DNA from: Candidatus Micrarchaeota archaeon
GTDB lineage: Archaea > Micrarchaeota > Micrarchaeia > Anstonellales > Bilamarchaeaceae
Assembly: GCA_040753215.1 (NCBI GenBank)
Contig: JBFMEZ010000013.1
Location: 18,911 to 82,910, forward strand
Direction: 5' to 3'
Length of the DNA: 64,000 nucleotides
Shown here piece by piece: positions 9,389 to 63,120 of this stretch. Both the position numbers and the translations under genes were made by a program. The notes below the pieces were generated by a model. That model was not told the DNA's origin, made no database searches, and saw only the letters and a list, made by a program, of their open reading frames with translations. Each line of letters opens with the position of its first letter. Position 1 is the first letter of the stretch.

Positions 9389-9435
9389 TTCCGTTTTCCG
9401 TTTTCGGTTTCCAGTTTCGCGTTTTGTTTCCGTTT
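9389..9435. repeat. degenerate heptamer tract GTTTCC(A/G), representative of at least 13 dispersed tracts
   Basis: TTCCGTTTTCCGTTTTCGGTTTCCAGTTTCG; others at 10342, 28298, 29680, 30554, 30777, 42539, 46974, 48632, 49528, 51977, 54921, 56823, 57340, 62597. Confidence 0.85.
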
Positions 9436-9631
9436 TTTGCTCTTCAGCCGGCTCATTCTTCACCGGAATCATCTGCAATTTTGAGAAAAAGAGCGGTTTC
9501 CCGTAAGCCTTCTGAGCTTCTGCCATAAGGACACATCTTATATCTTATTCAATCTCTCCAGAGAAAACGCGGAGGGGAGCACCCCTCCCCATTTTCTTCT
9601 ATCTTTCAGCCCCTCCCCCATCATCATTACC

Positions 9632-10321
9632 TCATATCTTGTTCAGTCGCTCTTTTATTTGGCTCACTTCCAGATTTGTAGCCACTAAGGGGATCTGCTC
9701 CCTCTCCGCAATCTTCACGGCCAGCTTGTCAACCTTTTTCTTGTCCAGCCCGTGCAAAATTACTGAAGAGGGCTTGGATGGGCTGAGCCGAATCACGACC
9801 ATCGGGCTCCTGCCCGTGGAAACACCGGTGAATATCATCGCCCTCTCATTCATGTTTCCGTATATTCCCGTAAAGAAGTTTGATGGCATCTCCAGTATTA
9901 CCTTAATAGAATCTATAAGGGTATACCCATAGAGCTTCTTCCCCTCAAGATGCTCCGCACCGCTGAGCACCTCCCCGTCAATCAGCTTCACGAAATCCCC
10001 AAGGTCCACGCTCCGGGCGAATTCGTGCACCTCAAAATACTCTTCAGTGGAGGATTTCCCCTCCGTAAGCTTCTGCGCAATGCCACCGCCCCGGGCCGCA
10101 TCCAGCTCAAGGAGCGCGTTCACAAACCTCTTTATGATTCCGGCTCCGGGAGATTTCCTCCTGTTGCTTTCGTAATCGCTAATGGTTGAAACGCTGATTT
10201 TCAGGTGCTTGGAAAGCTCTGCCTGCGTTATGCCGAATATCTCCCTCCACTTCTTCATCGTGGAGCCCGGGTCCTCGGACAGGCTTATCTCCCCGGCTAT
10301 CTTCAGCTTTAGTTTGTCCAT
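9632..10321 (-). CDS. XRE-family transcriptional regulator with DRTGG-like C-terminal domain (COG1709-like)
   Basis: AGEI.LS..PG.TMKKWREIFGITQ.EL...ISDYE; IFTGVSTGRSPMV. Confidence 0.88.
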   Translation of the reverse strand: MDKLKLKIAGEISLSEDPGSTMKKWREIFGITQAELSKHLKISVSTISDYESNRRKSPGAGIIKRFVNALLELDAARGGGIAQKLTEGKSSTEEYFEVHEFARSVDLGDFVKLIDGEVLSGAEHLEGKKLYGYTLIDSIKVILEMPSNFFTGIYGNMNERAMIFTGVSTGRSPMVVIRLSPSKPSSVILHGLDKKKVDKLAVKIAEREQIPLVATNLEVSQIKERLNKI

Positions 10322-10442
10322 CTAATCACGGTTTTCTGCCTGGGTTTCCAGTTTCCGGTTAACAGTTTCCAGAAGCTGAACAGCAGAATCCACAGTTAAT
10401 TCGTCCCAAACCCTATTAAAAGCTTCCTATCTGCCATATAGA

Positions 10443-10463
10443 TATACGTTAAAAGACGAAAAT
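10443..10463. repeat. 21-bp direct repeat, left copy (partner 11843-11863)
   Basis: TATACGTTAAAAGACGAAAAT vs TATACGTTGAAAGACGGAAAT, 19/21 identical. Confidence 0.8.
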
Positions 10464-11785
10464 TACAGATATGCGCCACGTTGTTTCCCAACCACTTCAG
10501 GATCCAGTCTTGCAAGCCACTCTTTATACTCCGCTTCCAGCCCTAGGCTGCGGACGGCCTCCATCTCGGCTTCAATCGCTTTCTCGTGGGATCTCGTCCG
10601 CCCCTCCACAAATTCGTGATAGGCGACTATTTGGCGTAAATTCTCAGGCACATCTTCAGAAATAGCAATTGCACGCTCATTCACCCTCCCATGGTTATCT
10701 AACACCTTCGCGGGGAGCAGGAAATATTTGAACCGATTTCCCATGACCTCCGTTTCAATCAGGCGCCCCTCGCAGGCGGCCATGAAATACCTGTATGTCA
10801 AAAGATGATTGAATATGACCATGTCATACATGCCTGGCTTGATACGTTCCTCAAGCAGCCTGCGCGATTCAGGAGTGAGAATCCCCACCAGCTTTTCCAT
10901 ATCCACCGCTGGTGCGATGTTAACAAAAGTGGATGCGAACCGCGGGTTTTTTCCGATGTGGCGGTTTATTGCCCGCGCTATGTGCCCGGTCGCATCCCAC
11001 AATTCATTCCCGTTTAATCTGCCGATCTGGTCCAGCACGGCTTTGGCTGCGCGCCCATCCCTCTCCCTCGCCAGCATCCCCAGCACCAGCGTGCCCGACT
11101 TTTCGGTAAAGCCGATGAAAAAGAGTGCCGTTTGCCACCTGATGCTGCTGTCAGCGTCGGAGAGGAGGGGTTTCAGCGTTTCCACAACCCTTTCTTTTTC
11201 CTGCGGGCATTTTCCGCAAAGGCCGCTTATCCCCGCAAGCACGTCATAAATGTACTCCCCGCCCTCTTCCAGTGCCCGCCCAAGCAGGAATCCAAGCAGT
11301 TCCGGCTTCCCTATATGGCCTAACTCCTGGTACGCCATGGACTTTGTTTTGCCGCTGGAGCCGCATGCTATGGCTGCAAACAGGTCTGTGATAGCCTCCC
11401 TTTCCCTTCCAACGTAACCCTCGAACTCAAGCATGCTGCGGAGTGTTGCGTCATCCGTTTTTTCCACAAAATCTGCCGCCACCACAATGTCGTCTTTCGT
11501 CATCCTGGGAGAATTCCCAAATACCGCTTCAATACTCTCAAGACTCCAGGTTGCGGCTTGTTTGGCCAATTCCTTGCAATTGTTTCTTTCGTCGTCCAGA
11601 ATGTGCACCTGCCTGAGGCAGGCCTCGCGGTCCATTCTAACGAGCTTCGGCATCTCCCTCTTCCCGCCGCCTTCCAATTCAGCTATGGGATTCTCCCCGC
11701 TGAATTTCTTTCGCCGGGGTTTTCCTGCGGGCTTGCCGCTATGTGCATGTGCAATTTCTTTAGGGCATCCGCTGGCATCTTTCAC
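10463..11785 (-). CDS. hypothetical protein with HEAT-like repeats and a C-terminal HE..E...H metal-binding-like motif
   Basis: LKPLLSDADSSIRWQTA HEAT-like unit; IVAYHEFVEGRTRSHEKAIEAE. Confidence 0.6.
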   Translation of the reverse strand: MKDASGCPKEIAHAHSGKPAGKPRRKKFSGENPIAELEGGGKREMPKLVRMDREACLRQVHILDDERNNCKELAKQAATWSLESIEAVFGNSPRMTKDDIVVAADFVEKTDDATLRSMLEFEGYVGREREAITDLFAAIACGSSGKTKSMAYQELGHIGKPELLGFLLGRALEEGGEYIYDVLAGISGLCGKCPQEKERVVETLKPLLSDADSSIRWQTALFFIGFTEKSGTLVLGMLARERDGRAAKAVLDQIGRLNGNELWDATGHIARAINRHIGKNPRFASTFVNIAPAVDMEKLVGILTPESRRLLEERIKPGMYDMVIFNHLLTYRYFMAACEGRLIETEVMGNRFKYFLLPAKVLDNHGRVNERAIAISEDVPENLRQIVAYHEFVEGRTRSHEKAIEAEMEAVRSLGLEAEYKEWLARLDPEVVGKQRGAYL

Positions 11786-11981: not shown

Positions 11982-12045
11982 GCCCTCTTCGTCTTACAAT
12001 CAACCAAAATGATACTTTTTTATAACTTTGGTTAATCATATATTT

Positions 12046-12693
12046 ATGCAGATCCCACTAAGGAACCGCCTCAGGAAGAGGCTGCACACGGAAACAGCCA
12101 TGCTCCAGGACGAGGTGGCGGACATGGTCTATTCGATAGAGCCAAAAGCAGTCCTGCACGGAGGCACCGCAATCTGGCGCTGCTACGGCGGGAACAGGTT
12201 TTCAGAGGATTTGGACTTCTACTTCCCGCCGGAAAAGGATTTTGAAAAAAACCTTAGGGAAAAGGCTTCGGAGAGGGGCCTTTCCATCCCCAAGTACAAG
12301 ATGACGGAGAATGTAATCTTCGCAAAAATCTCGGGCGGAGAAACTGAAGTGAGGCTGGAGATAAACCTTTCCGCAAGAAAGAAGGGAATCCCGAAGCCCT
12401 ACGAGAGGCTGGACGGCTCATTTATGGATGTATTTACGCTTTCTCCGGAAGAGCTGATTCTTGAGAAGATAAGCGCGTATTCCGGAAGGAGGCTCATCCG
12501 CGACATATATGACATCTACCATCTGAGCAGGCTCATAACGGATGATTCGCTGGTGAAGAAAGAAATGCAGAAGTTCCTTAAGGAAATCCCGGCTCCGCTG
12601 GACGAGAAAACCCTCGCGGCTCTTCTCTACTCCGGGGCGGTGCCATCCTTCGCCCAGATGGGGGAGGCGCTCAATGCGAGGTTTTCAAAATGA
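12046..12693 (+). CDS. abiEii: AbiEii-family nucleotidyltransferase toxin (type IV TA)
   Basis: LHGGTAI..CYG.NRFSEDLDF; EK..A...R...RDIYDIY. Confidence 0.92.
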   Translation: MQIPLRNRLRKRLHTETAMLQDEVADMVYSIEPKAVLHGGTAIWRCYGGNRFSEDLDFYFPPEKDFEKNLREKASERGLSIPKYKMTENVIFAKISGGETEVRLEINLSARKKGIPKPYERLDGSFMDVFTLSPEELILEKISAYSGRRLIRDIYDIYHLSRLITDDSLVKKEMQKFLKEIPAPLDEKTLAALLYSGAVPSFAQMGEALNARFSK

Positions 12694-20298: not shown

Positions 20299-21246
20299 AT
20301 GCGCATGGAGTTCTCCTTTTCCTCCAGATACCCCTTCACTTCCGAAGCAAAGCAGAAGGTGGAGCAGTCCTCCCTCGAGCTGAACGACGGGATTATGGAG
20401 AGGGCGGTGCAGAGGGTGGTCTCAGCGCTGAGGGGGGAGAAAGGGAGTGCATACAGGCTCCACCCATCAGATGAATTGCTCGAGCTGGGCTCCTATGCGG
20501 CCGCCAGGATGATGCTCGCCTATCTGCGCAACCGCTTTTTGACCGGGAGGTTCGCGGTCGCGGAGGCGAAGCGCGCCTCCTCCTTCATGCGCTCGGATTC
20601 GGAGGAGAATCTGGGAAAACTGGGAGAAGAGCTGGGGATAAGGCCCACTGAATACGAGGGAAGGATGGTGCTCCCGGTCTCCCAGTATGTTTCCTTCTCC
20701 CCGAAATCCATAGACTACCGCCTCATTTTCCGCAATGTGAAAGGCGGGTTCGTTGAGGTGAAGAGGCCCGAGGTAATCCGGCTGATGGAGGAGGCGGTGA
20801 GGATGAGGATGGAAGTGCTGAAGCCCGCCCAGAACCCTCCGAAAATAATCCAGGAATATTCCAAAAAGCTCATGGCCCTCGTCCCGAAGGAGGCGGTGAT
20901 GAAGATGAGCTTCAGGGAAGGGGACAACCCGCCCTGCATAGAAAAATTGCTGGAGCAGGTTAAGGCGCACCAGAACCTCAACCACCAGGCGAGGTGGGCG
21001 CTCGCGGTCTATCTCCTCTCGAAGAACGTTTCCATGGAGAAGGTGCATTCCATCTTCTCAAACCTTCCCGATTATGACGAGAAGAAAACGAAATACCAGC
21101 TTGAGCACATAGTGAAGAGGGGGTATTCCATGCCCGCCTGCGCGACCCTCCTGAGCTACGGGATTTGCGTGGCGGACTGCAGGATAGGGACGCCATTGAA
21201 CTGGAAGGTGAAAGATTGGAAGAGAGGGAAAGGCGGTTCATCCTGA
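20299..21246 (+). CDS. priL: DNA primase large subunit
   Basis: RYPF, RFAVAEAKR, PPCI..LL, NLNH.AR, FS..PDYDE.KT.YQL.HI, PAC.TL...G.C...C Fe-S cysteines. Confidence 0.95.
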   Translation: MRMEFSFSSRYPFTSEAKQKVEQSSLELNDGIMERAVQRVVSALRGEKGSAYRLHPSDELLELGSYAAARMMLAYLRNRFLTGRFAVAEAKRASSFMRSDSEENLGKLGEELGIRPTEYEGRMVLPVSQYVSFSPKSIDYRLIFRNVKGGFVEVKRPEVIRLMEEAVRMRMEVLKPAQNPPKIIQEYSKKLMALVPKEAVMKMSFREGDNPPCIEKLLEQVKAHQNLNHQARWALAVYLLSKNVSMEKVHSIFSNLPDYDEKKTKYQLEHIVKRGYSMPACATLLSYGICVADCRIGTPLNWKVKDWKRGKGGSS

Positions 21247-28218: not shown

Positions 28219-29088
28219 ATGCACATCCTTTTCTCCTCCAAAAACCCTGCAAGCAACAATATTGCGCAGAGGCTCATGGAGATGGGCTTCAGCGAAGTTT
28301 CCGGTTCTCCGTATCCAGCTTCCAGAACGGGAAACTCAAACCGTGAAGCCCTGGGAAACCAGGGAAACGAAAGGGCGGCTTCACGGTTTGACAGGGAACA
28401 GGAAACCGGATACTGGGCTTGGAAAGGCCACAGGATGCTGGACACAAAGGTCGGGCTTATCCTTGATGTGCCCACGGATTGGGATGCGGATTGGCTTTTG
28501 GTGCTCTCCACGCACAGAAGCGAGAAGAAATTCCCCGCATTTACTGTGCACATTCCGGGCAACTGGGACAAGGCGGAGATGGGAGGCGAGCCCCGCACCC
28601 TCAACATTGCGTATGCGAGCAGGATGAAGGATTTGCTTCTTGCGCTTAGGGAGAAGAATACTCTGGGGTGGAATGTGAACCAAGAGGTCGACCATCATGG
28701 CCCCACCTGTAAACTTCCGATAATATTCATAGAAATAGGGAGTTCGGAGGAGGAATGGGTGAACCCTAAGGCGGCGGAAATAGTTGCGGAAGCGGTGATA
28801 GATTCCATAAATGAGAAGAAGCTCTATCCATCCTATGTTGGAGCGGGAGGGGGGCATTATGCGCCCTTCTTCACGAAATTGATGCTGGAATCCGAGGATG
28901 CGTTCGGGCACATAATTCCAAAATACCAGGCGGCGAACATCGGTGCGGATACGCTGAAGCAAGCGAAGGAGAAGAATGTGGAGAGGGTGGATACGCTGGT
29001 TTATGAAAACAAATCCTTCAGGGCAGGCGAGCGGGACAGGTTGTTTTCGATAGCGAAAGAGATTGGGCTGGAAGTTGAGATTCGCTAG
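28219..29088 (+). CDS. dtdA: archaeal D-aminoacyl-tRNA deacylase carrying an in-frame repeat insertion
   Basis: S..NPAS.NI, LSTHRS...P.FTVH.PGN, EVDHHGPT, F.EIGS.EEEW, GGGHYAP.F, GHI.PKY. Confidence 0.93.
   Translation: MHILFSSKNPASNNIAQRLMEMGFSEVSGSPYPASRTGNSNREALGNQGNERAASRFDREQETGYWAWKGHRMLDTKVGLILDVPTDWDADWLLVLSTHRSEKKFPAFTVHIPGNWDKAEMGGEPRTLNIAYASRMKDLLLALREKNTLGWNVNQEVDHHGPTCKLPIIFIEIGSSEEEWVNPKAAEIVAEAVIDSINEKKLYPSYVGAGGGHYAPFFTKLMLESEDAFGHIIPKYQAANIGADTLKQAKEKNVERVDTLVYENKSFRAGERDRLFSIAKEIGLEVEIR
28336..28391. repeat. palindromic element, subfamily A copy 1 (intragenic, in frame)
   Basis: TCAAACCGTGAAGCC-26 nt-GGCTTCACGGTTTGA, perfect 15-bp inverted repeat. Confidence 0.9.
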
Positions 29089-29642: not shown

Positions 29643-29695
29643 CGGCTGGTGTTTGCACCCAACCTATAAAAACCAGCATCCCGGGAACCGGAAAC

Positions 29696-29752
29696 TCAAA
29701 CCGTGAAGCCCTGAGAAAAAGAGGGAAACGAATGGGCGGCTTCACGGTTTAA
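29696..29752. repeat. palindromic element, subfamily A copy 2 (intergenic)
   Basis: TCAAACCGTGAAGCC...GGCTTCACGGTTTAA flanked by GGGAACCGGAAAC and CCGAAAACTGAAA. Confidence 0.9.
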
Positions 29753-29766
29753 CCGAAAACTGAAAA

Positions 29767-29872
29767 TAGCCCCGACCGGATTCGAACCGGTGTCCGAAGG
29801 TCCAGAGCCTTCTTTCAGGACCGGGGTGGCTCGCGCCGCCCGGGTTATCCTTGACCACTAGACGACGGGGCT
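29767..29872 (-). tRNA. tRNA-Gln(CTG) with a 33-nt intron at about position 25/26
   Basis: AGCCCCG/CGGGGCT acceptor stem, GAAGG-CTCTGGA-CCTTC anticodon arm, ACCGG-TTCGAAT-CCGGT T-arm; 106 nt = 73 + 33. Confidence 0.92.
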
Positions 29873-29880
29873 AGCGTTAC

Positions 29881-30451: not shown

Positions 30452-30550
30452 AGCCAGGGGAGGGAATCGAACCCCCCTATGCCGGTTTCTTCTGTGGGAT
30501 TTCTCCCCCTGGAGCTGCAGCCGGCCACATAGCCTATCTGTCACCCTGGC
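30452..30550 (-). tRNA. tRNA-Cys(GCA) with a 28-nt intron at 37/38
   Basis: GCCAGGG/CCCTGGC acceptor, U discriminator, GCCGG-CTGCAG[intron]A-CCGGC, TTCGATT T-loop. Confidence 0.92.
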
Positions 30551-30652
30551 AGGCCAGTTTCCGGTTTCCAGTTCCCGGTTTCCAGAATCTGGCCTGGCAA
30601 TACTCTGGTGGGATTAAGGTATTAAAAAGCTACGCCGCTATTTTACCCTGCT

Positions 30653-30758: not shown

Positions 30759-31172
30759 ATCTCATTAATTTTGTTGCCGGTTTCCGGTTTCCCGTTTCCG
30801 GAAACTACGTCTGCAAAATTAGGTTTTTCTATTTCCTTTTTTGGCTTGTTTTTGGGGGGTTTCAAATATCTTGGGTTTTGGGCCCTACGGTTTTTGAAAT
30901 CCATATGTTTTTCACCTCATTTCTTGATATTTTTTCTTGATGTTTTTATACTTTTAGGGAGCATGTTTCCGATTAACACGCTCCGCTAGGCACGCCTGTT
31001 GCACGAGACGCGTCAGGCAACGGCCGAAAAAGCCTAGCGCGGAGCCGGTTTCACCTTATAACGTTCTGTATCGCTTCGCGATAACTGGCAGAAACCAGCG
31101 GGTTTCCGCCATCCGGTTCCTTGCTTTGGGGCTTATTTCAGCCTCAATCCATTCCAATTTCAAATTTCCTAG

Positions 31173-41973: not shown

Positions 41974-42090
41974 ATTCCGGCCCTCCAGAAACTGCCGTGC
42001 AGCTTCTTTTATTCCATCGTTTAAAAAGGTTCTTGGGGTTCTTTTCCGTTATCAATTAAACCCCAGACTTCAGTTTGCCTTAATAGCAAA

Positions 42091-42112
42091 TGATAACATT
42101 TTTTTGTTATCA
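42091..42112. promoter_or_regulatory. 8-bp inverted repeat upstream of the AlbA_2 gene
   Basis: TGATAACA-TTTTTT-TGTTATCA. Confidence 0.45.
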
Positions 42113-42127
42113 ATTGTTATATATCGG

Positions 42128-42540
42128 TCAAATCCCCTCCTGCATCTTCCTCACCTTCTCCAGCAGTTCATCATTATTCGCCCTCTCAATGCTCTCATAA
42201 AGCTCGTTCTTTGCAGTATGCACGTAAATCATCGTAGTCTGCAAGTTCGTATGCCGTGCAAACTTTGAGGCCAGAGCCACATTCCCCCCATTCTTCCTGC
42301 AGAAATTAGTAATCGCATAATGCCGAAGGCTATGGGTGCTCAACCTATACAGCGTCTTAGGACTTTCCCCAACGCTGTACCCGTAAACCTCATCCAGCTT
42401 GGCCTTCTTCACGTATTTCATGAAAAATTTCCTTGCGGTCTGGGAGGTGATGTATGGCTTTGTCTTGTCTGTCTTCGTCCCCTCCTCAAGGGAGAAGAAG
42501 AGGCTGCCTTGCCGAAAGGGATTGCGCTCTGCTGCAATCC
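42128..42540 (-). pseudogene. tyrosine recombinase/integrase C-terminal fragment
   Basis: HSLRHYAIT box II, ARHTNLQTTMIY catalytic His/Tyr; box I Arg region missing; 5' side ends in a heptamer tract. Confidence 0.85.
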
Positions 42541-42584
42541 GGAAACTCGAAACCAGGCACGGGAAACCCGTTCTTTCCGGCATT

Positions 42585-43205: not shown

Positions 43206-43271
43206 GCGCCTGATAATCAGAAAAAGGTTAAATCGTTTGCCATTGTAACCATGGTTACATTACAATTCATT

Positions 43272-44580: not shown

Positions 44581-44615
44581 TTAAGGCTTTAAACCTTCCT
44601 TCAGAAACAGGAGCC

Positions 44616-46973: not shown

Positions 46974-47023
46974 CCTTCCAGTTCCCAGTTGCCCGTTCCC
47001 GGTTTCCCGTTTTCAGCATCTGG

Positions 47024-47761: not shown

Positions 47762-47798
47762 GCGAACAATTAAAATCCGCACCAATAAAACCCTTTCC

Positions 47799-48584: not shown

Positions 48585-48752
48585 AAAACTCTCTTCCCTA
48601 GAGAAAACGCGGGGAGGGCGCTCCCCCTATTCAGTTTACTGTTTCCGGTTTCCAGTTTCCGGAACCCTAAACGGGAAACCGGGAACTCTCTGACCCCCTC
48701 CCACTTCGCTCAGCAATGCTTTGCACGCACTCCTTACGCTATGTCTTCAAAA

Positions 48753-49526: not shown

Positions 49527-49559
49527 CCCGTTTTCAGTCCCCAGTTTCCCGTTTCCTGC

Positions 49560-51656: not shown

Positions 51657-52589
51657 CTAACCTTTCCTTATCTTATACTCCTTCGTGATCTCCTTTATTC
51701 CCTCTTCCAATCTCCTTGGCTTAAACCCCAATTCCCTCCTCGCCCTCTCCCATCCGAACGCCCTGTCCCCGCCCAGTATCGCAACATGTTCTCTCGTAAG
51801 TTTCGGCTTCTTCCCGAAAAGCGCCCCCAGCTCCCGCACCCTTCCAATAAGGTTCGCCATCCAGAAAGACATGTGTTTTTTCGGGGGTGCAACCCCAAGC
51901 TCCCTGCACGCAATTCCATAAATCTCCTCCTGCGTTTTGCTCTCCCCGCAAACCACATAAGTCCCCTGCCCCGCGTCAGTTTCCAGTTTCCGGCTTCCAG
52001 TCTCCCCTCCCCCCGCGGCTGCCGCGATAGCCCGCGCCGCATCCTCCACATGCACGAAGGGAACCCTGTTCTTCCCGTCCCCTATAATGAACATCTTCCC
52101 TTTTTCCAGCATCCCCAGAATATAGAAATAATCCCCAAACTCCGGCCCATAGATGGTCCCAATCCTCAAAATCACGTGCCTCCCCTTCTTCCGCACAATC
52201 TCCTCCGCCTCCAGCTTGCTCCGCGAATAGGCCGAATCCGGGTGCGTGGGCGTCGCCTCATCAGCCGGAATCTCCTTCAATTTCTTCCCATATACAGAAA
52301 TGGAGCTCGCCAGCACGATCTTGCATCTCTCCGGAGAATTCTCAACAATCCTTCTCGTGAGCTCCACATTAGTTTTCCTCATCTCCCCCTCGTCCCAAAA
52401 TCGCATGGAGCCGGCAATATGAATAATACAGTCCGCATCCTTCAAAATCCTGCGCAAGCTCTCCGCCGAGAAGTCCGTAACAACCTCTCCCTTAAGCCCT
52501 TTTGCATTCCGGACCAGGGGCACCGCATCCACGAACCTGAGCACGTGCCTGCCCAATCTTCCAGAGGCGCCTGTAATGTAGATTTTCAC
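51657..52589 (-). CDS. NAD-dependent epimerase/dehydratase with a short repeat-derived insertion
   Basis: ITGASGRLG, H.AG, ASSISVYG, YSRSK, R...IYGP, FVHVED.A. Confidence 0.92.
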   Translation of the reverse strand: MKIYITGASGRLGRHVLRFVDAVPLVRNAKGLKGEVVTDFSAESLRRILKDADCIIHIAGSMRFWDEGEMRKTNVELTRRIVENSPERCKIVLASSISVYGKKLKEIPADEATPTHPDSAYSRSKLEAEEIVRKKGRHVILRIGTIYGPEFGDYFYILGMLEKGKMFIIGDGKNRVPFVHVEDAARAIAAAAGGGETGSRKLETDAGQGTYVVCGESKTQEEIYGIACRELGVAPPKKHMSFWMANLIGRVRELGALFGKKPKLTREHVAILGGDRAFGWERARRELGFKPRRLEEGIKEITKEYKIRKG

Positions 52590-52644
52590 GGAAAATACTC
52601 CCCCTCCGATATTTATATAAATACTCATAACACATAATATTACT

Positions 52645-54303
52645 ATGGGCGACACGTGCGGCCCCCAGCCGAATGGCTTCTCCCCGGTGTGCACCAGGGC
52701 CCGCCAGCTTGCGGAGCGCACCCTTAGCGGGCTCAGGGCAAGCGAGAGGAGGAAGCGCCACGGCCTTCTGGTCGCAGAAGGCGTGGACGGTTATTTCCAG
52801 AAATTATCCCCGAGGGTAGAGCACGGCCCGCTCATGAACCGCCTGGTTGCATCCACAACACTATTAGCCCAAATCCACCAGCTCACCCTCTACGGAAGGG
52901 ACCGGGGCGAGCTGAGCGAGTTCATGGGCGCGCTGGAGCGCGGAATTCCCACAATCCCGGGTTTTGGGGCGGACATGGGGCTGCCTCCGGCCATTTTTTG
53001 CGGAGACCTCCAGAGATACATAGAGCAGTACAGGACTGTTTTTTCACACAGCTACATCCTAAGCGAAGACTCAAAGATGCTTGATTTCGTACGCCTCATA
53101 AAGGCAGGGGGCCTGGAGCTCCCGCCCCTCCTCGTGGTGATGGCGGATTTCGCGCTTCCCCTCGAAAAGGCGGTTGAAGGGCTTCCAAAAGGCGAAACCG
53201 TTTCCGAGGGCAGGAGGAAGCTCTGGTCCGACAAGATAAGGGAAGTCGTCTTCCCACTCGCCGACCTGATAGGGTGGCAGGACGCCGCAAACAGCATGAG
53301 GCACAACGCGGTCCTCTGGAACCCGGACCTCAGCTACAAGCTGGAGGCAAAGGAAAGATGGCTGAGGGAGAACGCGGCTGCGCTGAGCGCAGCCGGAGCG
53401 CTGCTCCAGGAGATTTCAGACAGGGCAACCAGAAAAATCCTCGGTGAAGTGGATGGTAAACCGCCCCGGGTGCAATACGAAAAAGACGGCCCCATGACCA
53501 AGACCGGCGCCGCCATAGTCATAAAGGAGGACGAGAAGCCCGGCAAGCCCGTGATGGACCTCGTACGCACGCGCTACATCTTCCAGTGCGACGGGATGGC
53601 GGCAGAGGGCCGGGAAGGGACAAATGTACAGGACCTGGGTTACGAAGTGCTTGGCTCCTTCAGGTCTTCCGGCGCATTCAGCGGCCTTAAGATACAGGAC
53701 AACTACCGGAAGCCCAAGAGGAGCGGCTACAGGGCAATCCACATCACCGGCTTCCTCCTGAACGGCTTCGGCATACCAGTGGAGGTAATACTGATAGACG
53801 AGGATAGCTACAAAAACGCCGCCTGCGGAAGGTGCAACCGCGCGCTGTACAAAGGTTACAATGGAAGGGCCAACCCCGAAGATGTGGAGAAGTTCGAGGC
53901 GGTTGACAGGCTTCTGGAGCCAATCCTCGATGCGGCGCTCGCATTGTCCAAAATGCCAGCCCGCGCGCAGCAGGCTTCGCCAGCAACGCGCGAAGATACG
54001 GTCGCATACACAGTATATAATTCCGGGGAAAGCCAGCCGTGCGACGTTAAGCCGGGCAGCACTGTCCTTGATGTGATGGTCAGATATTACTTGCGCACAG
54101 GGCAGCCTATCCGCAACGCCGAGGTTTACGAGGGCCCTAGCGAGGATGGCAGGAGGCTCGGCATTTATGAGAAGTGCCCGCCAGAAATAACAATAAAGCC
54201 ACTGGGTGAGTTCAGCTACGGGACGATACTGCAGGTGTACAGGAATCCCCGCGTGAACGGCGACACCAAGAGAGCGCTCCGCGAATTCTGCAACGGAAAA
54301 TAA
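52645..54303 (+). CDS. divergent long RelA/SpoT-like protein (degenerate HD region, synthetase-like nucleotidyltransferase, TGS-like tail)
   Basis: REVVFPLADLIGW, DLVRTRYI, DNYRKPKRSGYRAIH, IPVEV, KPGSTVLDV. Confidence 0.75.
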   Translation: MGDTCGPQPNGFSPVCTRARQLAERTLSGLRASERRKRHGLLVAEGVDGYFQKLSPRVEHGPLMNRLVASTTLLAQIHQLTLYGRDRGELSEFMGALERGIPTIPGFGADMGLPPAIFCGDLQRYIEQYRTVFSHSYILSEDSKMLDFVRLIKAGGLELPPLLVVMADFALPLEKAVEGLPKGETVSEGRRKLWSDKIREVVFPLADLIGWQDAANSMRHNAVLWNPDLSYKLEAKERWLRENAAALSAAGALLQEISDRATRKILGEVDGKPPRVQYEKDGPMTKTGAAIVIKEDEKPGKPVMDLVRTRYIFQCDGMAAEGREGTNVQDLGYEVLGSFRSSGAFSGLKIQDNYRKPKRSGYRAIHITGFLLNGFGIPVEVILIDEDSYKNAACGRCNRALYKGYNGRANPEDVEKFEAVDRLLEPILDAALALSKMPARAQQASPATREDTVAYTVYNSGESQPCDVKPGSTVLDVMVRYYLRTGQPIRNAEVYEGPSEDGRRLGIYEKCPPEITIKPLGEFSYGTILQVYRNPRVNGDTKRALREFCNGK

Positions 54304-54416: not shown

Positions 54417-55556
54417 TCATAACCCCCCATCAAATAGTATAGCACTTTCCCTGGTCCTTATCTTCTGCGACCTCACATCCGCAATCCTTTCCTTCACCGC
54501 GGCAATCCTTCCAGAAAATCCTATTCTCTCCCCAATCCGAATAAGGATCTCATCCACTGGTATATGCCTCCCCCCCAGCACCGAATTCCCCACAACCATG
54601 CATCCGCACGGCGCAATCCTTTTCAAATTCCGCAGCACCCTCTCCATGTCCGCAAAATACGTCCCCGCGATGGGGATATCCAGATAATCATCCGCCTCCG
54701 GAGGCGCATCCCCAAACGATTCCCCGGTTATGAAGCCCCTCACTTCTTTCGCCCGCATTATTTTCGTACTATCTTTTTCCATGGTCAATAGGCTCAGCTC
54801 CAGCCCATAAACTTTGGAATAATCTATATAGTTCAGGTAGGGCGGCGAGGTCACGAACGCATCCGCCTTCCAATCCTCGAACTCCCGCGCATCTTCCAAT
54901 TTTAATTCCGGCTCCACAGTCAGTTTCCTGTTCCCCGTTTCCGGTTTCCTTTCTCTCTCCCGCAAATCCGCAACCATCCTCTTCACTTTCCGTTTAAACG
55001 CATCCTTAACCGGCATGGCGCTTTTCGAGGGCTCCTCCCGCAAGACCCCCCCATCCTTTATGAAAAATCCCACCTGCGGCAAAATAGATAGCAGCGCAAG
55101 CAAAAACAGCCCGCCCACCCCCTCATTCTCAATTTCCTCAATGCTTTCCCTCAAATGTCGTATATCGTTATAGTTCCTCTTCCCGAAAAACCGCGAAGGA
55201 TGGAACAGCTCAAACTGCCATATCCACCCCGGCTCTTTCCGTTCCTTAAACATCCCTTTCAATTCCCTCTCCGCCTCCTCCGCGTCCTTTTCCGAATAGT
55301 CCGCGCATTTCGTTTTCGTCACAAACAGCGCGAGGGGCGAAACATCTATCCCAATCCCCTTCATCCCGTGCTCCTTCGCATAGAGCATAGTAGTCCCGAT
55401 TCCGCAGAAAGGGTCGAACACTGTCCCGCCCTTCACTCCAAGCTCGCCCAATGCCCACTCCACCAATTGCGGAGAGTATGCCTCCTTGTAATAGAACCAG
55501 TTGTGCACGGGAATATCCTTCGCAGGCTCGAAGGTGAAATAGTCCCCTATTTCCAT
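54417..55556 (-). CDS. orphan DNA amino-methyltransferase (N4-C/N6-A)
   Basis: H.W..YKEAYSP.LV, VFDPFCGIGTT motif I, VTSPPY motif IV, VVGNS. Confidence 0.88.
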   Translation of the reverse strand: MEIGDYFTFEPAKDIPVHNWFYYKEAYSPQLVEWALGELGVKGGTVFDPFCGIGTTMLYAKEHGMKGIGIDVSPLALFVTKTKCADYSEKDAEEAERELKGMFKERKEPGWIWQFELFHPSRFFGKRNYNDIRHLRESIEEIENEGVGGLFLLALLSILPQVGFFIKDGGVLREEPSKSAMPVKDAFKRKVKRMVADLRERERKPETGNRKLTVEPELKLEDAREFEDWKADAFVTSPPYLNYIDYSKVYGLELSLLTMEKDSTKIMRAKEVRGFITGESFGDAPPEADDYLDIPIAGTYFADMERVLRNLKRIAPCGCMVVGNSVLGGRHIPVDEILIRIGERIGFSGRIAAVKERIADVRSQKIRTRESAILFDGGL

Positions 55557-55606
55557 GCTTCCCATTCCCCATCATGATTTTAAACGCTTTCCCACGAAAG
55601 AGAATA

Positions 55607-56821: not shown

Positions 56822-56871
56822 TCGGTTTCCCGTTTCCCGCTTCCAGTTACCCGTATTCGGTTGCCGTTCCA

Positions 56872-57258
56872 CTATCCTTTCTCCGCGCCTTCCTTGGATA
56901 ATTCGTCCGCCCTCCCGTTCTCCTCCCGCGGAATCCACTCAAAATGAAGCGTCATCCCTTCTCCCGCCTTCCATATCTTTCCCATCAGTTCTCGAAGATG
57001 CGGCGCCTTCACCCTGAACTCGCCTTTCAGCTGGCTCACCAGCAGTTTCGAGTCGCTGCGCACGGAAAGCCCCTTAGCCCCAAGCTTCCCCGCCTCCTCC
57101 ACCGCAATCAGCACCGCCTTGTACTCCGCCTCATTATTCGTCCCAAACCCAAGATGCCTGCTTATCTCCTTCACCACTTTCCCTTCATGCACGAGCACAA
57201 TGCCCGCGCCCATCCTCCCCGGGTTCCCGAGGCAGCATCCGTCCGTATAAGCAATCAT
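56872..57258 (-). CDS. rnhA: ribonuclease HI
   Basis: YTDG...GNPG..GAG, TNNEAEY.A, SDS.L.V.Q..G.F.VK, WIPRE.N..AD.L. Confidence 0.95.
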   Translation of the reverse strand: MIAYTDGCCLGNPGRMGAGIVLVHEGKVVKEISRHLGFGTNNEAEYKAVLIAVEEAGKLGAKGLSVRSDSKLLVSQLKGEFRVKAPHLRELMGKIWKAGEGMTLHFEWIPREENGRADELSKEGAEKG

Positions 57259-57283
57259 AGGATACACCGTTTCCGGTTCCATG

Positions 57284-57339
57284 TCAAACCGTGAAGCCAC
57301 GGGAAACCAAGGGAACGATTGGGCAGCTTCATGGTTTGA
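57284..57339. repeat. palindromic element, subfamily A copy 3 (between divergent genes)
   Basis: TCAAACCGTGAAGCC...AGCTTCATGGTTTGA followed by GTTTCCCGTTTCCAG. Confidence 0.88.
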
Positions 57340-57395
57340 GTTTCCCGTTTCCAGCAAACATAGGGATTTTATCCCTTCTCTTAATAACCCTACCC

Positions 57396-57875
57396 ATGGC
57401 AGTGCTGCAAAAGATACACACATCCGGAAGGATGATGTACGCAAAGGCAGTCCTCATAGCCCTCATCGCGGCATTCGCGTGGGCGCAGATAGAGAAATTC
57501 CTCAGGCTGAATTACGCTGTCGTGTACCCGGCAATCGCCGCCTTCGCAATACTTATAATTATTGTCGCGTTCGTGCGCTCCAGGCTCCAGTCCCTGGAGA
57601 TAACCGACGAGGGGGTGACCTCCCGCCTCGGCATCATAAACGTGAAGACGCAGTTCATCCCGTACAGCAAGATTGATTCGGTCAATGTGTCCCGCACGGT
57701 TTTCGACCGCATATTCATGCTCGGCACCCTCCGCATAGACACGCTCGCCAGCATAGGGACCGAAACCGTGATGAGCGGCATCCCCTCCAGAAACCTGGAG
57801 GAGGCGCTGAAGGCGATACAGTCAAGGATACACCCGGGTGGCCGCAGTGAAGGAGTCCCTCCTTATAGAAGATGA
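57396..57875 (+). CDS. bPH_2 (bacterial PH) domain membrane protein
   Basis: Two TMs then LEITDEGV....GII......IPYSKID.VNVSR..FDRIF.LGTL.I.T. Confidence 0.88.
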   Translation: MAVLQKIHTSGRMMYAKAVLIALIAAFAWAQIEKFLRLNYAVVYPAIAAFAILIIIVAFVRSRLQSLEITDEGVTSRLGIINVKTQFIPYSKIDSVNVSRTVFDRIFMLGTLRIDTLASIGTETVMSGIPSRNLEEALKAIQSRIHPGGRSEGVPPYRR

Positions 57876-58302
57876 AAAAAAAGCGCGCCGCCTCATCCTC
57901 CTCGGAGCGATGGAGGAAGATGGAAAGGTCCGCCTCCCTTATCTGGAGGCCGCATATTTCGCGGAGAAAGGGGAGATAGAGGGAGGTGCAGAGGAATTCA
58001 TCACCCTTGCGCAGAAATCCGACCCGCTCGCCCCGGAAAAATATTTAGTTCTAAAGCAGCTCCGCGATTCCGGCTACATTGTGCGCACAGGCGAATCAGC
58101 GGATTTCCTCCGCGTATATAAAAAAGGGATAAGGGTGGGCGAGGACCGCACTGCCTACCTCCTCCGCGTATTGAGAAAGGGCGAATCCCCGGACCTGCAC
58201 GCGGATTTGAGGCTCGCCGGAAAGATGCGCAAGGAACTAGTTTATGCTTTTGTGGGAGAAAAAATAGAGTTCATAAAAGTCATGCGTGTGAATTTCGAGT
58301 AA
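57838..58302 (+). CDS. single-unit tRNA-splicing-endonuclease-like protein lacking the catalytic motifs (beta/structural-type)
   Basis: L.YLEAAYF.EKG, YLV.K.LRD.GY.VR, DF.RVY, YAFV; lacks G.KFG and the His/Lys motifs. Confidence 0.75.
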   Translation: MAAVKESLLIEDEKKARRLILLGAMEEDGKVRLPYLEAAYFAEKGEIEGGAEEFITLAQKSDPLAPEKYLVLKQLRDSGYIVRTGESADFLRVYKKGIRVGEDRTAYLLRVLRKGESPDLHADLRLAGKMRKELVYAFVGEKIEFIKVMRVNFE

Positions 58303-60287: not shown

Positions 60288-60536
60288 ATGACAAGTGAGA
60301 TAAATGTGACTTTTCGTAATGTCGATAGGGATGTTCTGCAGGATTTCAGGGCAGAGGCGGTAAGGGAAAACAGAACATTCGGGCAGGCGCTGGCCGAAGC
60401 CCTTCTTCTATGGCTGCAGCACAGAAGGATGGCCCGCAAAAAGAAAATGAAGCTCTCTGCTTCGAAACCTCTCGACTTCGGCCCCGGCACGGAGCGGCTG
60501 AGCGAAAGGGCAGACGAGATTCTTTACGGCCGGTGA
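60288..60536 (+). CDS. vapB: VapB-like antitoxin (RHH-type)
   Basis: VTFRNVD......FRA.A......GQAL.EAL; DFG.GTE.LSE..DEILYG; overlaps the PIN gene. Confidence 0.8.
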   Translation: MTSEINVTFRNVDRDVLQDFRAEAVRENRTFGQALAEALLLWLQHRRMARKKKMKLSASKPLDFGPGTERLSERADEILYGR

Positions 60537-60934
60537 TTGGCATCTCCGTGCTCCTGGACACCTCTTTTCTGGTTGCCTATTATGACAAAAGGGACCAGAA
60601 CCATCCAGCTGCAGTCCGGCTGGTCGGAGAGCTCGAAACAGGGAAGTTTGGCAGGCTCATAATTTCAGAGTATGTTTTTGACGAACTGATGACAATCCTG
60701 AAAAAATTTGTGGGAAAAGCAAAGGCTGCTGAAAAGGGCAGGGACATCCTGAACTCGCTTGATTTCCTCCAGGCGGATTCCAAAGTGTTCCAGCTTGGCT
60801 GGGAGCTTTTCAAAAAATCCGAGGGATTGAGTTTCACCGACTGCTATCTGGTCGCTGCGATGAAACACTACAACATTGAGTATCTGGCTACCTTTGATTC
60901 CGGATTTCATGGCATTGTGAAGGTTTTGCGGTAG
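60533..60934 (+). CDS. vapC: VapC PIN-domain toxin
   Basis: LLDTSFLVA, D.NH, V.DE..T, LSFTDC, ATFD.GF. Confidence 0.92.
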   Translation: MIGISVLLDTSFLVAYYDKRDQNHPAAVRLVGELETGKFGRLIISEYVFDELMTILKKFVGKAKAAEKGRDILNSLDFLQADSKVFQLGWELFKKSEGLSFTDCYLVAAMKHYNIEYLATFDSGFHGIVKVLR

Positions 60935-61013: not shown

Positions 61014-62159
61014 GTGAAACTCGTCTTTGATGGAAAAGAAATATATGCAGAAGACGCGGAGAACGTAAGCTCCCTGGCAAAAGGGTTCTTCGGGAAGATA
61101 AAAGGAGGAAAGGTTTTCCTCTCCCCGGGGGAGGCCCTTTACCTTATGGACAACCGCAACGCGGAGTGCGCAAGCCCGGGCGGAAGACCCATCCGATTCA
61201 ATTCCCTTGCCTCCTCCTTTTCCAAATCGCCCAAGCTCCTCGCCCGCTACCTGGTTTTGAAGGACTGGAGGGAGCGCGGCCTCATCGCCCGCGATGCAAA
61301 GGAAATACTGGGAAAATTCAGCCGCTCCGCAGCGGTAAGCTATCCGAGCTCGCCCTTCCCTCTTCCCCCCGTCTCACTCAGCGGCGTCTTCTTCCCTGAG
61401 GATATGCTCACAACAATAGATTCCCCCGAAGGGAAAAAACTCTATGAGGAAGGATGGTTCGGCCAGTTCGGCACATACAAGGCGGCTCACAAGGGAAAAA
61501 TCACAAAGCTGGACGCATTCGAAACCCTTTATCTCCTAAAGAAAGGCATCCTCGCAGTCCCGGATTCCAGTTTCAAGAAAATACTCTCCCATGCTGAAAG
61601 GCGAATCCATTTCTTCCAGGAGATGTATGAAGTATATGAAGACTGGAGGGAGAAGGGCTTCGTGGTAAAGACCGGGTTCAAGTTCGGCTCCCATTTCCGC
61701 ATATATTTCCCAGGCGCCTCGCCGGTGAAGGGCGGGGAATGGGCCCACTCAAAGCACGTCCTCCATGTATTTCCGAGGAAGAGCAAGCTCCTCATCTCCG
61801 AGTGGTCCCGCGCAATACGCCTCGCCCATTCCGTGAAGAAGACGTTCATACTCGCGGTTCCCGGAAAGAAAGCAAAGCCCATCCGGATCTGCGACTTCGC
61901 CCTCTACCACAGGAAGGGCGCGGAATGCGAAACCCCCAAATCCGGAGAGCCGTCCTTCCTCGCCCTCGCCCTCACCGAGGACGAATACCTGGGGGGGATA
62001 GAGTTCGCCCAGGCCCTGGAGGAGTGCGCGGAGCGCGGCCTCGAGCTGGTAATCGCAATCGCGGACCGCGAAACCTCCGTAACGTATTACTTAATAAAGA
62101 AAGTAAATCTTCCCGGAAGCAGATTCGACTATTTCGAAATCCGGTGGCTCAACCCCTAG
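61014..62159 (+). CDS. endA: tRNA-intron endonuclease, three-unit epsilon-like architecture
   Basis: 381 aa; non-catalytic unit (LSPGEALYL, YLV.KDWRERG), catalytic unit (VKTGFKFGSHFRIY, HSKH, AHSVKK), terminal beta-like unit (IAIADRETSVTYY). Confidence 0.92.
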   Translation: MKLVFDGKEIYAEDAENVSSLAKGFFGKIKGGKVFLSPGEALYLMDNRNAECASPGGRPIRFNSLASSFSKSPKLLARYLVLKDWRERGLIARDAKEILGKFSRSAAVSYPSSPFPLPPVSLSGVFFPEDMLTTIDSPEGKKLYEEGWFGQFGTYKAAHKGKITKLDAFETLYLLKKGILAVPDSSFKKILSHAERRIHFFQEMYEVYEDWREKGFVVKTGFKFGSHFRIYFPGASPVKGGEWAHSKHVLHVFPRKSKLLISEWSRAIRLAHSVKKTFILAVPGKKAKPIRICDFALYHRKGAECETPKSGEPSFLALALTEDEYLGGIEFAQALEECAERGLELVIAIADRETSVTYYLIKKVNLPGSRFDYFEIRWLNP

Positions 62160-62202
62160 CTTTTTAAATCTTTTAACCATATAGAAGCACGCAGGTGTTC
62201 AA

Positions 62203-62466
62203 ATGGCAAAGTACAGCTTGGCGAGGCAGCTTACTGGAAAGAAAGTAATCACGAATGAAGGCGAGGAATTCGGCAAGCTCGTTGATGTAAACATAAACGA
62301 GATTACCGGGAAGATCGAGGAGCTCGTCGTGGACCCGAGCCCGGACAAGGCGAACCTCGAGGGCCTCAAGGATGAGGAGGGCTTCATACTCTGCCCCTAC
62401 GATTCCGTCCTCGCGGTGGGCGACTTCATCATCGTCGAGAAGAGGTCTCTCGGCGGCCAATCCTGA
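62203..62466 (+). CDS. PRC-barrel domain protein
   Basis: L.GKKVIT.EG...GKL.D..INE.TG.I..L.V, PY..V.AVGD.IIV. Confidence 0.92.
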   Translation: MAKYSLARQLTGKKVITNEGEEFGKLVDVNINEITGKIEELVVDPSPDKANLEGLKDEEGFILCPYDSVLAVGDFIIVEKRSLGGQS

Positions 62467-62542
62467 GTTTTTTATTCATCTCCGCTTCTCCCCGCTGATT
62501 TTCCATTCCCGGCGCAAGCAGCAGTCAGTTTTCAGTATCCGG

Positions 62543-62596
62543 TCAAACCAAACCCCCGCTTTCGCGCCTCATTTTGGCTCTGGAGGTTTGGTTTGA
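62543..62596. repeat. palindromic element, subfamily B copy 1 (supplies the stop codon of the HD gene)
   Basis: TCAAACCAAACC...GGTTTGGTTTGA perfect 12-bp IR, then GTTCCCGGTTTCCGGAAAC. Confidence 0.85.
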
Positions 62597-63120
62597 GTTC
62601 CCGGTTTCCGGAAACTTGGCCTGCGCACCCGGCATCTATCTAAAAATTCCCTGGAAATTTTTATTCTTGGATTTCCAACCCGTTTCCCTTCTTTTGTGTA
62701 GAATTTGGCTTTGTTTATGTTTCGGAGCATTATCCTGAGTGTCTCTTCAGTCGTCTGTTTTCTTTCCTTCCCTGCCTGCAATGCCTTCCGGATTCCGAAT
62801 TTCCCGACCGCCTCAAGGAGATTCGCATCGCTCACCAGTTTTTCTTCTACCGATTCCGGCTTTGTGGTATGGCGATACAATGCCCGTAGATAGGATTTGG
62901 GGAATCCCATGCGCAGGATTTGCTGTTTATGTTTCTGCACGTAACCCTTCAGCCCATGGAAATAAATCAGAAACCATAGCTTGCCATCATCGATTCTGGA
63001 GTAGCCTTTCCTCAGCCTTGCGACCTTTGCCCTTATCCGTAGGATATGGCTGAAATTATGCATGCTGTCCTTTTTCCTGTAAAGCGGCTCTACGAACCTT
63101 ATGATTTCCTTTGTCCGCAT
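62569..63120 (-). CDS. HD-domain-like protein
   Basis: HNFSHILR, YFHGL, DANLLEAVG.FGI.K. Confidence 0.75.
   Translation of the reverse strand: MRTKEIIRFVEPLYRKKDSMHNFSHILRIRAKVARLRKGYSRIDDGKLWFLIYFHGLKGYVQKHKQQILRMGFPKSYLRALYRHTTKPESVEEKLVSDANLLEAVGKFGIRKALQAGKERKQTTEETLRIMLRNINKAKFYTKEGKRVGNPRIKISREFLDRCRVRRPSFRKPGTQTKPPEPK

Follow-up and report, generated by a model that had tools for sequence, protein, structure and literature searches.

What places one short DNA unit at many unrelated sites of a compact genome, and keeps it recognizable there? The question is raised by tandem tracts of a degenerate heptamer, GTTTCCN, that recur throughout a 64,000-nt stretch of contig JBFMEZ010000013.1 from a Candidatus Micrarchaeota archaeon (the whole stretch analyzed, hereafter the window). 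The window, placed in the Micrarchaeota (DPANN archaea) through its pyrF-like protein of the orotidine monophosphate (OMP) decarboxylase family, has a G+C content of 53.7% and more C than G on its + strand; about 90% of it is coding. Comparison with syntenic relatives indicates that most of the heptad arrays were inserted, and their arrangement around four small palindromes indicates that they serve in turn as targets for other DNA.

Dispersed heptad arrays in the window

A strict scan, in which an array had to contain at least four units with no more than two mismatches per 6-nt core and a mean of no more than one, found 12 GTTTCC arrays, all of them on the + strand of the window, against 0, 0 and 0.02 expected by chance from Markov simulations of order 1, 3 and 5. 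GTTTCC ranked first in a period-7 scan of all 4096 hexamer cores, and Tandem Repeats Finder (TRF) returned a period of 7 or 14 at every site. By TRF and an in-register scan, the tracts are head-to-tail tandem repeats of 7 nt, and the one unit occupies 15 independent loci in the 64 kb, far above a Markov expectation of about zero. The initial annotation of this DNA had listed at least 13 such tracts; every position on its list holds in-register GTTTCCN-like heptads, and both the simulations and the periodicity ranking show their excess over chance. The arrays, with the palindromes A1 to A3 and B1 that some of them contain, are as follows (U, unit).

9393..9436, + strand: array of about six heptads (GTTTTCC GTTTTCG GTTTCCA GTTTCGC ...) in the C-terminal tail of a small - strand open reading frame (ORF), 12 nt upstream of the HMG-CoA synthase start (9381)
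10344..10370, + strand: 4-unit array in a 63-nt window-specific insertion between the TATA box/transcription start site region and the HTH_3 ATG (10321)
28297..28335, + strand: left heptad flank of A1, four + orientation units followed by GGGAAAC
28336..28391, + strand: palindrome A1, 15-bp arms TCAAACCGTGAAGCC / GGCTTCACGGTTTGA and a 26-nt loop with GGGAAAC units
28392..28413, - strand: heptads to the right of A1, reading GTTTCC on the - strand
29680..29767, - strand: palindrome A2 (29696-29752) within a - orientation array, between the 3′ end of an intron-containing tRNA gene (-) and its T5 terminator
30557..30583, + strand: 4-unit array that separates two divergent tRNA genes; against L002, an insertion of 34 nt
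30773..30805, + strand: 4-unit array ending in a GTTTCC/GGAAAC palindromic junction, 15 nt after tRNA-Ile
42534..42570, - strand: 4-unit array of opposite orientation at the right end of an 11.8-kb segment, upstream of a C-terminal integrase fragment
46974..47014, + strand: 6-unit array between convergent genes for a PmbA/TldD-family peptidase (+) and NAD(P)HX dehydratase (-)
48634..48686, + strand: 4-unit array that forms a hairpin with an inverted partner (48669-48686); the spacer, about 170 nt long, is window-specific and separates convergent genes
49530..49556, + strand: 4-unit array filling the space from the phosphoribosyltransferase stop to the start of the pyrF-like gene (OMP decarboxylase family), both genes on the - strand
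51979..52005, + strand: 4-unit array in a 36-nt in-frame insertion in an NAD-dependent epimerase gene (51657-52721, -)
54923..54949, + strand: 4-unit array, part of about 24 nt inserted in frame into the linker of a DNA methylase gene (54417-55565, -)
56825..56865, + strand: 6-unit array between a convergent + strand gene (stop 56821) and RNase H (-)
57269..57353, + strand: composite U U G + palindrome A3 (57284-57339) + U U, separating the divergent genes for RNase H (-) and a bPH_2-domain protein (+)
62528..62615, + strand: composite U U G + palindrome B1 (62543-62596) + U U GAAAC

A typical array has four units and spans about 28 bp. Across 45 units the consensus base is present as G1 in 44/45, T2 in 42, T3 in 42, T4 in 35, C5 in 37 and C6 in 43; the seventh base is free, with T rare there, and units of the window deviate from consensus at about 10% of positions. 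Runs counted on the + strand with no more than one mismatch per unit number nine for two units (five expected by chance), none for three, seven for four and one for five, a distribution with its mode at four units rather than a geometric decay. Heterogeneous units, these run lengths and the lack of any unit at empty orthologous sites (see below) do not fit a phase-variable slippage microsatellite, from which the initial annotation had already set the tracts apart. The best-matching pair of arrays agrees at 24 of 28 positions, and arrays of shuffled units reach 24/28 in 100% of trials. Because the best pair does no better than this, the arrays are not copies of one another and have no master sequence, and copy-and-paste of a 28-nt master element is ruled out. 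No gradient of degeneracy along the arrays was found in the in-register scan.

Solo arrays are unstructured (z about 0 for 49530 and 46974), which argues against arrays driven by structure; the hairpin of the 48634 array with its inverted partner has z = -3.0. A G-quadruplex origin was also rejected: the units hold GG only, not G3 runs, position 5 varies (37/45), and G1, T2 and T3 are better conserved. The palindromic junction GTTTCCGGAAAC has two exact occurrences, at 30794 and 62604, and a near-copy, GTTTCCGGAAC, at 48655. One further candidate, 48504-48530, proved to be a coding look-alike with no indel relative to the relatives.

The arrays lie predominantly between genes. In the final classification 11 of the 15 loci are non-coding and four coding, in a window of which about 10% is non-coding; the probability of 3 × 10^-10 was obtained for 12 of 15 intergenic loci and stands for that count, the 9393 array having later been reassigned to the small ORF. 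They also share a polarity. At 13 of the 15 loci GTTTCC is on the + strand (binomial P = 0.007), regardless of how the neighbouring genes are oriented; the initial annotation had observed this strand for most tracts. The exceptions are the 42534 array and the array around A2. The components of third-codon skew that are independent of gene direction (GC3 r = -0.117, confidence interval -0.174 to -0.058; AT3 +0.109; both for the + strand) make the + strand look like a lagging strand in composition. Array orientation may thus follow replication, the direction of which is read here from composition alone. A likeness of GTTTCCA to the archaeal origin-recognition-box core (TTCCA...TGGAA; PMC1904270) is no more than a lead: the arrays lack both the dyad and the G-rich extension, and the window proteins scanned included no orc1/cdc6 product.

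Orthologous sites, age and lineage

Relatives were chosen through the pyrF-like protein, which gave six contigs of metagenome-assembled genomes (L001-L006) with 86-90% amino-acid identity and conserved synteny, and through HMG-CoA synthase, which gave seven further syntenic loci at 90-92% identity. Most tracts of the window have no counterpart in these relatives, and the arrays vary between presence and absence at orthologous sites. At 49530, L001, L003 and L006 have overlapping phosphoribosyltransferase and pyrF-like genes, and in L002 the two are 2 nt apart; L004 and L005 carry 4-unit arrays homologous to that of the window, with another order of units but the same rare unit, GTCCCC. At 46974, the two stop codons abut in L001 and L003, a short unrelated spacer is found in L002 and L006, and L005 has five units. 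The 10344 insertion is missing from L521, L522, L523 and L526, where the promoter region abuts the ATG. The 56825 site has two units in L004 and none in L001, L002 and L006, and at the A2 site of L002 the terminator directly follows the tRNA. Three tracts are in-frame insertions into coding sequence: A1 with its flanks, the 51979 insertion, which encodes ...GETGSRKLETD... and has no counterpart in L001, L002, L004 and L006, and the 54923 insertion, which encodes ...PETGNRKLT.... Because most testable orthologous sites hold no unit at all, the arrays are best read as insertions and not as expansions of a pre-existing unit; by this comparison they are inserted DNA, absent at orthologous sites of close relatives.

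The 9393 array differs. Orthologous arrays of five to seven degenerate units occur in L521, L522 and L523, which marks this array as old, common to the relatives and not window-specific, so that not every tract is a recent addition. The small conserved ORF that contains it (about 46 aa, 9382-9520, -) lies directly upstream of an operon for HMG-CoA synthase, thiolase and a DUF35-like protein, and the heptads encode its tail, which is rich in lysine and glutamate. Close relatives have almost no arrays over about 100 kb of syntenic DNA, from which we infer a recent burst of array insertions in the lineage of the window.

Four insertions stand between imperfect direct repeats (7, 9, 11 and about 24 nt), whose length is not fixed; there are no terminal inverted repeats. 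The direct repeats read TGGCTGA / TGGCTAG at 46974, GTGGATTCT / GTGATTAG at 10344 and GCGCCATACTC / GCCCCATACTC at 49530 (a 10/11 match, null about 1%), and the longest is a duplication of about 24 nt around a hairpin insertion at ~9533-9655, neighbouring an array. Because the length varies, the repeats would fit staggered breaks, or survivorship at genes that share signals, better than a classical transposase.

Two minor observations concern DNA next to arrays. A third hairpin, AGAGAAAACGCGGrGGGrAGsrCsCCTCCCC, is repeated at ~9560-9597 and 48597-48632 and resembles an intrinsic terminator on the - strand; both copies stand in window-specific insertions adjoining heptad arrays, the first bracketed by the ~24-nt duplication, which derives from the 3′ end of the HTH gene. 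An ORF of 488 aa at 47118-48584 (+) has no Pfam match and overlaps the NAD(P)HX dehydratase gene (47024-47992, -) in antisense; of this ORF only the 3′ portion, from ~48000, appears real, as a conserved small membrane-protein gene.

Four-fold degenerate sites of the pyrF-like gene are only 0.46-0.59 identical between the window and L001-L006, so neutral DNA must be close to saturation. The orthologous arrays of the window, L004 and L005 nevertheless still fit the consensus, and on this comparison arrays would be either young or actively kept. The shared rare unit GTCCCC at 49530 and the conserved 9393 array suggest that at least some of them are old and maintained.

GTTTCCN arrays are also found in L018 and L024, distant Micrarchaeota with a pyrF-like protein of 55-57% identity, where they flank a tRNA and also lie inside the nnr gene, and a one-base variant, GTTTCGG, forms arrays in L021 and L025. 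The nnr (NAD(P)HX dehydratase) arrays of L018 (13058-13077, three units) and L021 (9380-9740, 8-9 units) occupy the identical position, directly after a conserved ...IADGR motif. A pattern of three GTTTCCN units matched 61 stretches of viral DNA and more than 120 of metagenome DNA, where inverted pairs of four units were frequent. With three permuted control heptamers the viral matches numbered 53, at least 120 and 78, and the metagenome and viral contigs with GTTTCCN matches are unrelated to the organism of the window, so a universal GTTTCCN motif was rejected. Heptamer arrays are a general feature of microbial DNA; because the controls are equally common, the unit is lineage-specific.

Among the unrelated metagenome and viral contigs (L061, L036, L052, L084, L139 and L205; GC 0.5-0.7), inverted pairs of four AGTTTCC units around short spacers adjoin gene starts (at 8480-8900 in L061), and the run-length peak is again four units. 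L061 has further arrays of two other heptamers, CAAGATA and TTGTTTC.

Palindromes and larger DNA at the arrays

The three A copies (A1 28336-28391, A2 29696-29752 and A3 57284-57339) have the 15-bp arms and the 26-nt loop with GGGAAAC units in common, and B1 has arms TCAAACCAAACC... / ...GGTTTGGTTTGA; A and B elements measure 54-57 nt each. All four palindromes stand inside arrays at one unit phase, U U G, hairpin, U U (after ...CCNG), A1 and A2 being read on the - strand. As array DNA makes up 0.84% of the window, four of four hairpins would fall there by chance with a probability of about 5 × 10^-9. The arms are identical or differ by 1-2 nt and the hairpins are about 90% alike, but the units on either side resemble each other no more than any two units do; because of this difference the hairpins are the younger and the arrays their targets. 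Judged by position and phase, then, the arrays act as landing pads for the palindromes, one of the two roles that the initial annotation had proposed for them.

A1 with its flanks (28297-28413, 117 nt) is inserted in frame in a D-aminoacyl-tRNA deacylase gene (28219-29088, +), where L002 has only KGEE; for palindrome A1, z = -5.5. The A3 composite of about 90 nt is missing as a whole from L001, L002, L004 and L006. Near-identical copies, the absence of A1 and A3 from relatives and a specific target characterize A1-A3 and B1 as palindromic elements like miniature inverted-repeat transposable elements (MITEs). Neither A nor B matched Rfam, no copy of either was found in L001-L030, and in viral contigs the A arm had only single, chance-level matches. 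Rickettsia palindromic elements (RPEs), attributed to Ogata et al. in 2000, are reportedly small palindromic selfish elements that lie in frame in protein-coding genes and are translated. A1 in the deacylase gene is an RPE-like case; RPEs differ in being bacterial and 100-150 bp long, and are not known to be tied to heptamer arrays. The small dispersed repeats (SDRs) of Nostoc, attributed to Elhai et al. in 2008, are said to be hairpin-forming mobile elements in a heptamer-array-rich genome, some of them reportedly inserted in conserved sequences, and at 21-27 nt are shorter than the A and B elements.

An 11.8-kb segment (30806-42537) adjoining tRNA-Ile is missing from L002 and has a lower GC content (0.44-0.50). 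Its genes encode SAM synthetase, asparagine synthase, regulators of the AsnC and TrmB types, an RNA ligase and a Schlafen/AlbA_2 ATPase, and a C-terminal integrase fragment (42128-42607) lies at its end. Tracts at both ends of this tRNA-Ile island and at the truncation of the integrase had been described in the initial annotation, and the arrays 30773-30805 and 42534-42570 do bound the segment, the latter just upstream of the integrase fragment. Both ends carry the direct repeat TCCGGAAACT (on the left at 30797-30806); the adjoining tRNA pair is inverted relative to L002, and removal of the segment would leave an inverted pair of 4-unit arrays. Array-bounded ends with TCCGGAAACT in common suggest, though they do not prove, that larger DNA also landed in an array. 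A split integrase of the SSV (Sulfolobus spindle-shaped virus) type was rejected, since the joined ends give no continuous reading frame.

The window also contains a TnpB-only insertion sequence (IS) of the IS200/IS605 type at ~43261-44587 on the - strand, with OrfB_IS605 and a Cas12f-like TNB domain. It has subterminal hairpins CCACCGGTC...GACCGGTGG, is inserted adjoining the palindrome TGTAACCATGGTTACA, and its orthologous site is empty in L002 and L005. A link between this element and the arrays was rejected, the insertion site TGTAACCATGGTTACA and the hairpins being unrelated to the heptads and to A and B.

Other features of the tRNA region and the segment are minor. The tRNA-Ile gene (30653-30758) bears an intron, and two tRNA-like genes, probably also with introns, lie at ~30452-30552 (-) and ~29763-29873 (-); these were not called by ARAGORN or Rfam and have 79-92% identity to L002. 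Genes for tRNA-splicing endonucleases are found nearby at 57838-58302 and, of the three-unit type, at 61014-62159. A 12-nt tandem repeat, TTTTCTGGGTAG x 3.8 (97% match, 40797-40841), lies in the Schlafen/AlbA_2-HATPase gene (40627-41973).

Nature and upkeep of the arrays

Bacteria have been known for 35 years to carry dispersed heptamer repeats, and the Xanthomonas/Nostoc and Beggiatoaceae precedents have no established mechanism. The heptamers GGGAATC of Xanthomonas and GGGGAYT of Nostoc form about 185 heterogeneous intergenic loci, mostly of four units and some in inverted pairs, at sites common to species with varying length and sequence (Rehm et al. 2015, PMC4692102); in marine Beggiatoaceae, TAACTGA forms 169 sets, mostly upstream of start codons (MacGregor 2015, PMC4679880). 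With the cyanobacterial short tandemly repeated repetitive (STRR) sequences (Mazel et al. 1990) and GGGGAYT of Nostoc PCC 7120 (PMC4692102), the arrays described here share dispersed, intergenic tandem units of 7 nt, a lineage-specific unit and some inverted pairs. They differ in the unit, in an archaeal host with a genome of about 1 Mb and in being short (about four units) and degenerate, and the evidence now adds empty orthologous sites and in-frame coding insertions. They are not STRR1-3 proper (CCCCAGT, TTGGTCA and CAACAGT, of heterocystous cyanobacteria), the unit here being GTTTCCN and the host a member of the Micrarchaeota. The Xanthomonas repeats (PMC4692102), at about 185 loci per genome, are like them in heterogeneous heptads, a mode of four, an intergenic location and inverted pairs between convergent genes; their units carry G3 runs and proposed G-quadruplexes, whereas here there is only GG and the G/C pair is not the best-conserved part. 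TAACTGA repeats (PMC4679880) resemble them in having 2-6 copies, a few inside ORFs, no repetition of related heptamers and a patchy phylogeny, but keep position and orientation relative to the downstream gene, whereas the arrays here follow the chromosome strand. Full-text literature searches returned no report of dispersed heptamer repeats in DPANN archaea or of the GTTTCCN unit, and the arrays are an archaeal addition to this known class of dispersed heptanucleotide repeats.

The kept consensus, the recurrence in distant Micrarchaeota and the independence of arrays that are not copies of each other point to a conserved trans-acting factor that recognizes the heptad, and not to local slippage. 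We tentatively favor, while granting it somewhat less than even standing, a lineage-specific family of dispersed (GTTTCCN)n arrays, recognized by such a factor and behaving much like selfish or near-neutral DNA of the repetitive extragenic palindromic (REP) type. Arrays survive only where a very compact genome tolerates insertions, at gene junctions, in tRNA flanks and, always in frame, in hydrophilic protein loops. They change by gain and loss of units and yet fit one consensus, with G1, T2, T3 and C6 near-invariant and N7 free. The factor, a DNA-binding protein or a nicking or recombining enzyme, would keep arrays homogeneous or regenerate them; GTTTCC on the lagging-strand-like strand would be expected of elements acting on single-stranded DNA at the replication fork; and the small palindromes A and B integrate at the fixed unit phase.

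A close parallel is with REPs and their composites, bacterial interspersed mosaic elements and REP doublets forming hairpins (BIME-REPIN), together with the REP-associated tyrosine transposase (RAYT) (e.g. PMC3116915). These are likewise short extragenic repeats at gene ends that vary in presence between relatives, with a consensus upheld by a cognate protein, a role as targets of mobile elements and the strand bias expected of a single-stranded DNA mechanism. REPs are palindromes, however, and the arrays are tandem heptads; no cognate transposase, RAYT or Y1 transposase for the arrays was found among the window proteins scanned with Pfam, and the only IS200/IS605-type element, the TnpB IS, has unrelated hairpins and a different target. 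Several points count against the REP-like account. No transposase-like gene is linked to the arrays, and no candidate factor or enzyme was identified; the flanking duplications are imperfect, at 7-24 nt, and may reflect survivorship at overlapping gene junctions instead of an insertion mechanism; arrays that occupy the same junctions repeatedly may have been inserted independently instead of being maintained; the strand bias is that of only 15 loci in one 64-kb window; and the data leave room for a cellular function of the arrays.

Such a function is the substance of the strongest rival, which we regard as unlikely but serious: the arrays would be operator or architectural sites, with a conserved Micrarchaeota DNA-binding protein (e.g. 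ribbon-helix-helix or winged-helix, each subunit on one heptad as with the omega repressor) coating about four heptads at gene boundaries for insulation, repression or chromosome organization, and selection for that function would keep them. Proteins can read heptad arrays. The omega repressor of plasmid pSM19035 binds (WATCACW)n operators, contiguous 7-bp units in direct or inverted order with one protein dimer on each, which serve as plasmid promoter and centromere sites of 7-10 units. The arrays here are alike in anatomy only and are not tied to promoters. Position-specific conservation within the unit with a free seventh base, the retention of about four units at orthologous sites although units turn over and neutral divergence is saturated, the one consensus in distant Micrarchaeota, the location at gene boundaries and tRNA flanks and the exact or nearly exact GTTTCCGGAAAC junctions at 30794, 62604 and 48655 all suit this proposal. 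Most sites are empty in close relatives with the same genes, however, which argues that no site-specific function is needed; some arrays lie inside coding loops, distances to start codons vary (3-28 nt) and bear no constant relation to TATA boxes, and a strand bias independent of gene direction would not be expected of operators.

Templated or pseudo-templated synthesis de novo at nicks or breaks, either by a reverse transcriptase (RT) with a fixed RNA template or by a primase-polymerase of the archaeo-eukaryotic primase (AEP) type or end-joining polymerase copying existing arrays with slippage, is less probable still. It accords with heterogeneous units in arrays that are independent assemblies, with clean boundaries at empty sites, with strand polarity and with flanking duplications of variable length, as staggered breaks would leave. 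The initial annotation had inclined to such addition at breaks, but the 7-24-nt repeats fit survivorship at overlapping gene junctions equally well, and the enzymes that it had looked to did not appear. In Pfam scans of nearly all ORFs of the window, no RT, terminal deoxynucleotidyl transferase (TdT)-like or primase-polymerase gene was found beyond the housekeeping PriS (21165-22304), and no RT domain, the RVT_3 match at 56872-57444 being an RNase H fold. Of genes that bear on this search the scans found only PriS, an MNT/HepT toxin-antitoxin pair (63122-63813) with its nucleotidyltransferase, RNase H (56872-57444), TnpB and the integrase fragment. Templated synthesis, moreover, does not predict a mode at exactly four units, and the lack of a degeneracy gradient and the presence of at least two old and maintained arrays speak against it.

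A related but bolder idea, to which we assign a slightly smaller chance, is a dedicated, strand-polar Micrarchaeota system that would write or maintain heptad arrays in quanta of about four units at nicks or junctions on one replication strand, the arrays being programmed docking sites for hairpins and larger integrating DNA. Its enzyme could be an AEP-type primase-polymerase or an HUH-type nuclease-ligase. If true, such a system would give a first mechanistic grip on the origin of dispersed heptamer repeats, which have lacked an explanation since 1990.

Sequenced relatives with and without arrays make phylogenetic profiling for the factor practical, as well as the dating of insertions by empty sites. 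Through the arrays a streamlined genome gains spacer DNA: genes that had overlapped are uncoupled, in-frame loops are added to proteins and a probably leaderless mRNA acquires a leader. Short repeats, it appears, can also channel the landing of other mobile DNA.

We consider it improbable that the arrays are cis elements of RNA, with GGAAACN in 5′ leaders and intercistronic spacers and GUUUCCN in 3′ trailers binding a protein or tuning translation or stability. Several do lie 3-28 nt upstream of - strand gene starts; the 10344 insertion turns a probably leaderless mRNA into one with a leader and a Shine-Dalgarno-like GTGAT before the ATG; arrays occur in the 3′ trailers of two tRNAs, ahead of oligo-T terminators; and the TAACTGA repeats of Beggiatoaceae (PMC4679880) offer a precedent. 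Their sense is inconsistent, however, GGAAAC following - strand genes and GUUUCC following + strand genes, four arrays lie between convergent genes, and the same genes in relatives do without them.

The weakest proposal, ordinary microsatellites born by local replication slippage and then decayed by point mutation, can cite the variation in unit number between orthologous arrays (four versus five to seven), the near-equal abundance of any heptamer array in viral contigs and, in the passages of PMC4692102 and PMC4679880 that take up Mrazek et al. 2007, the standing of heptamers as the most over-represented class of long simple sequence repeats in prokaryotes, with a suggested polymerase-footprint effect on slippage, but is very improbable given one unit at 15 unrelated sites, empty sites without a proto-unit, run lengths (2:9, 3:0, 4:7, 5:1) that are not geometric and a consensus kept despite saturated neutral sites.

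Genes of toxin-antitoxin type occur at three places in the window: an AbiEii nucleotidyltransferase toxin at 12028-12693 (+), a PIN-domain protein at 60410-60934 (+) and the HepT/MNT pair, which is on the - strand.

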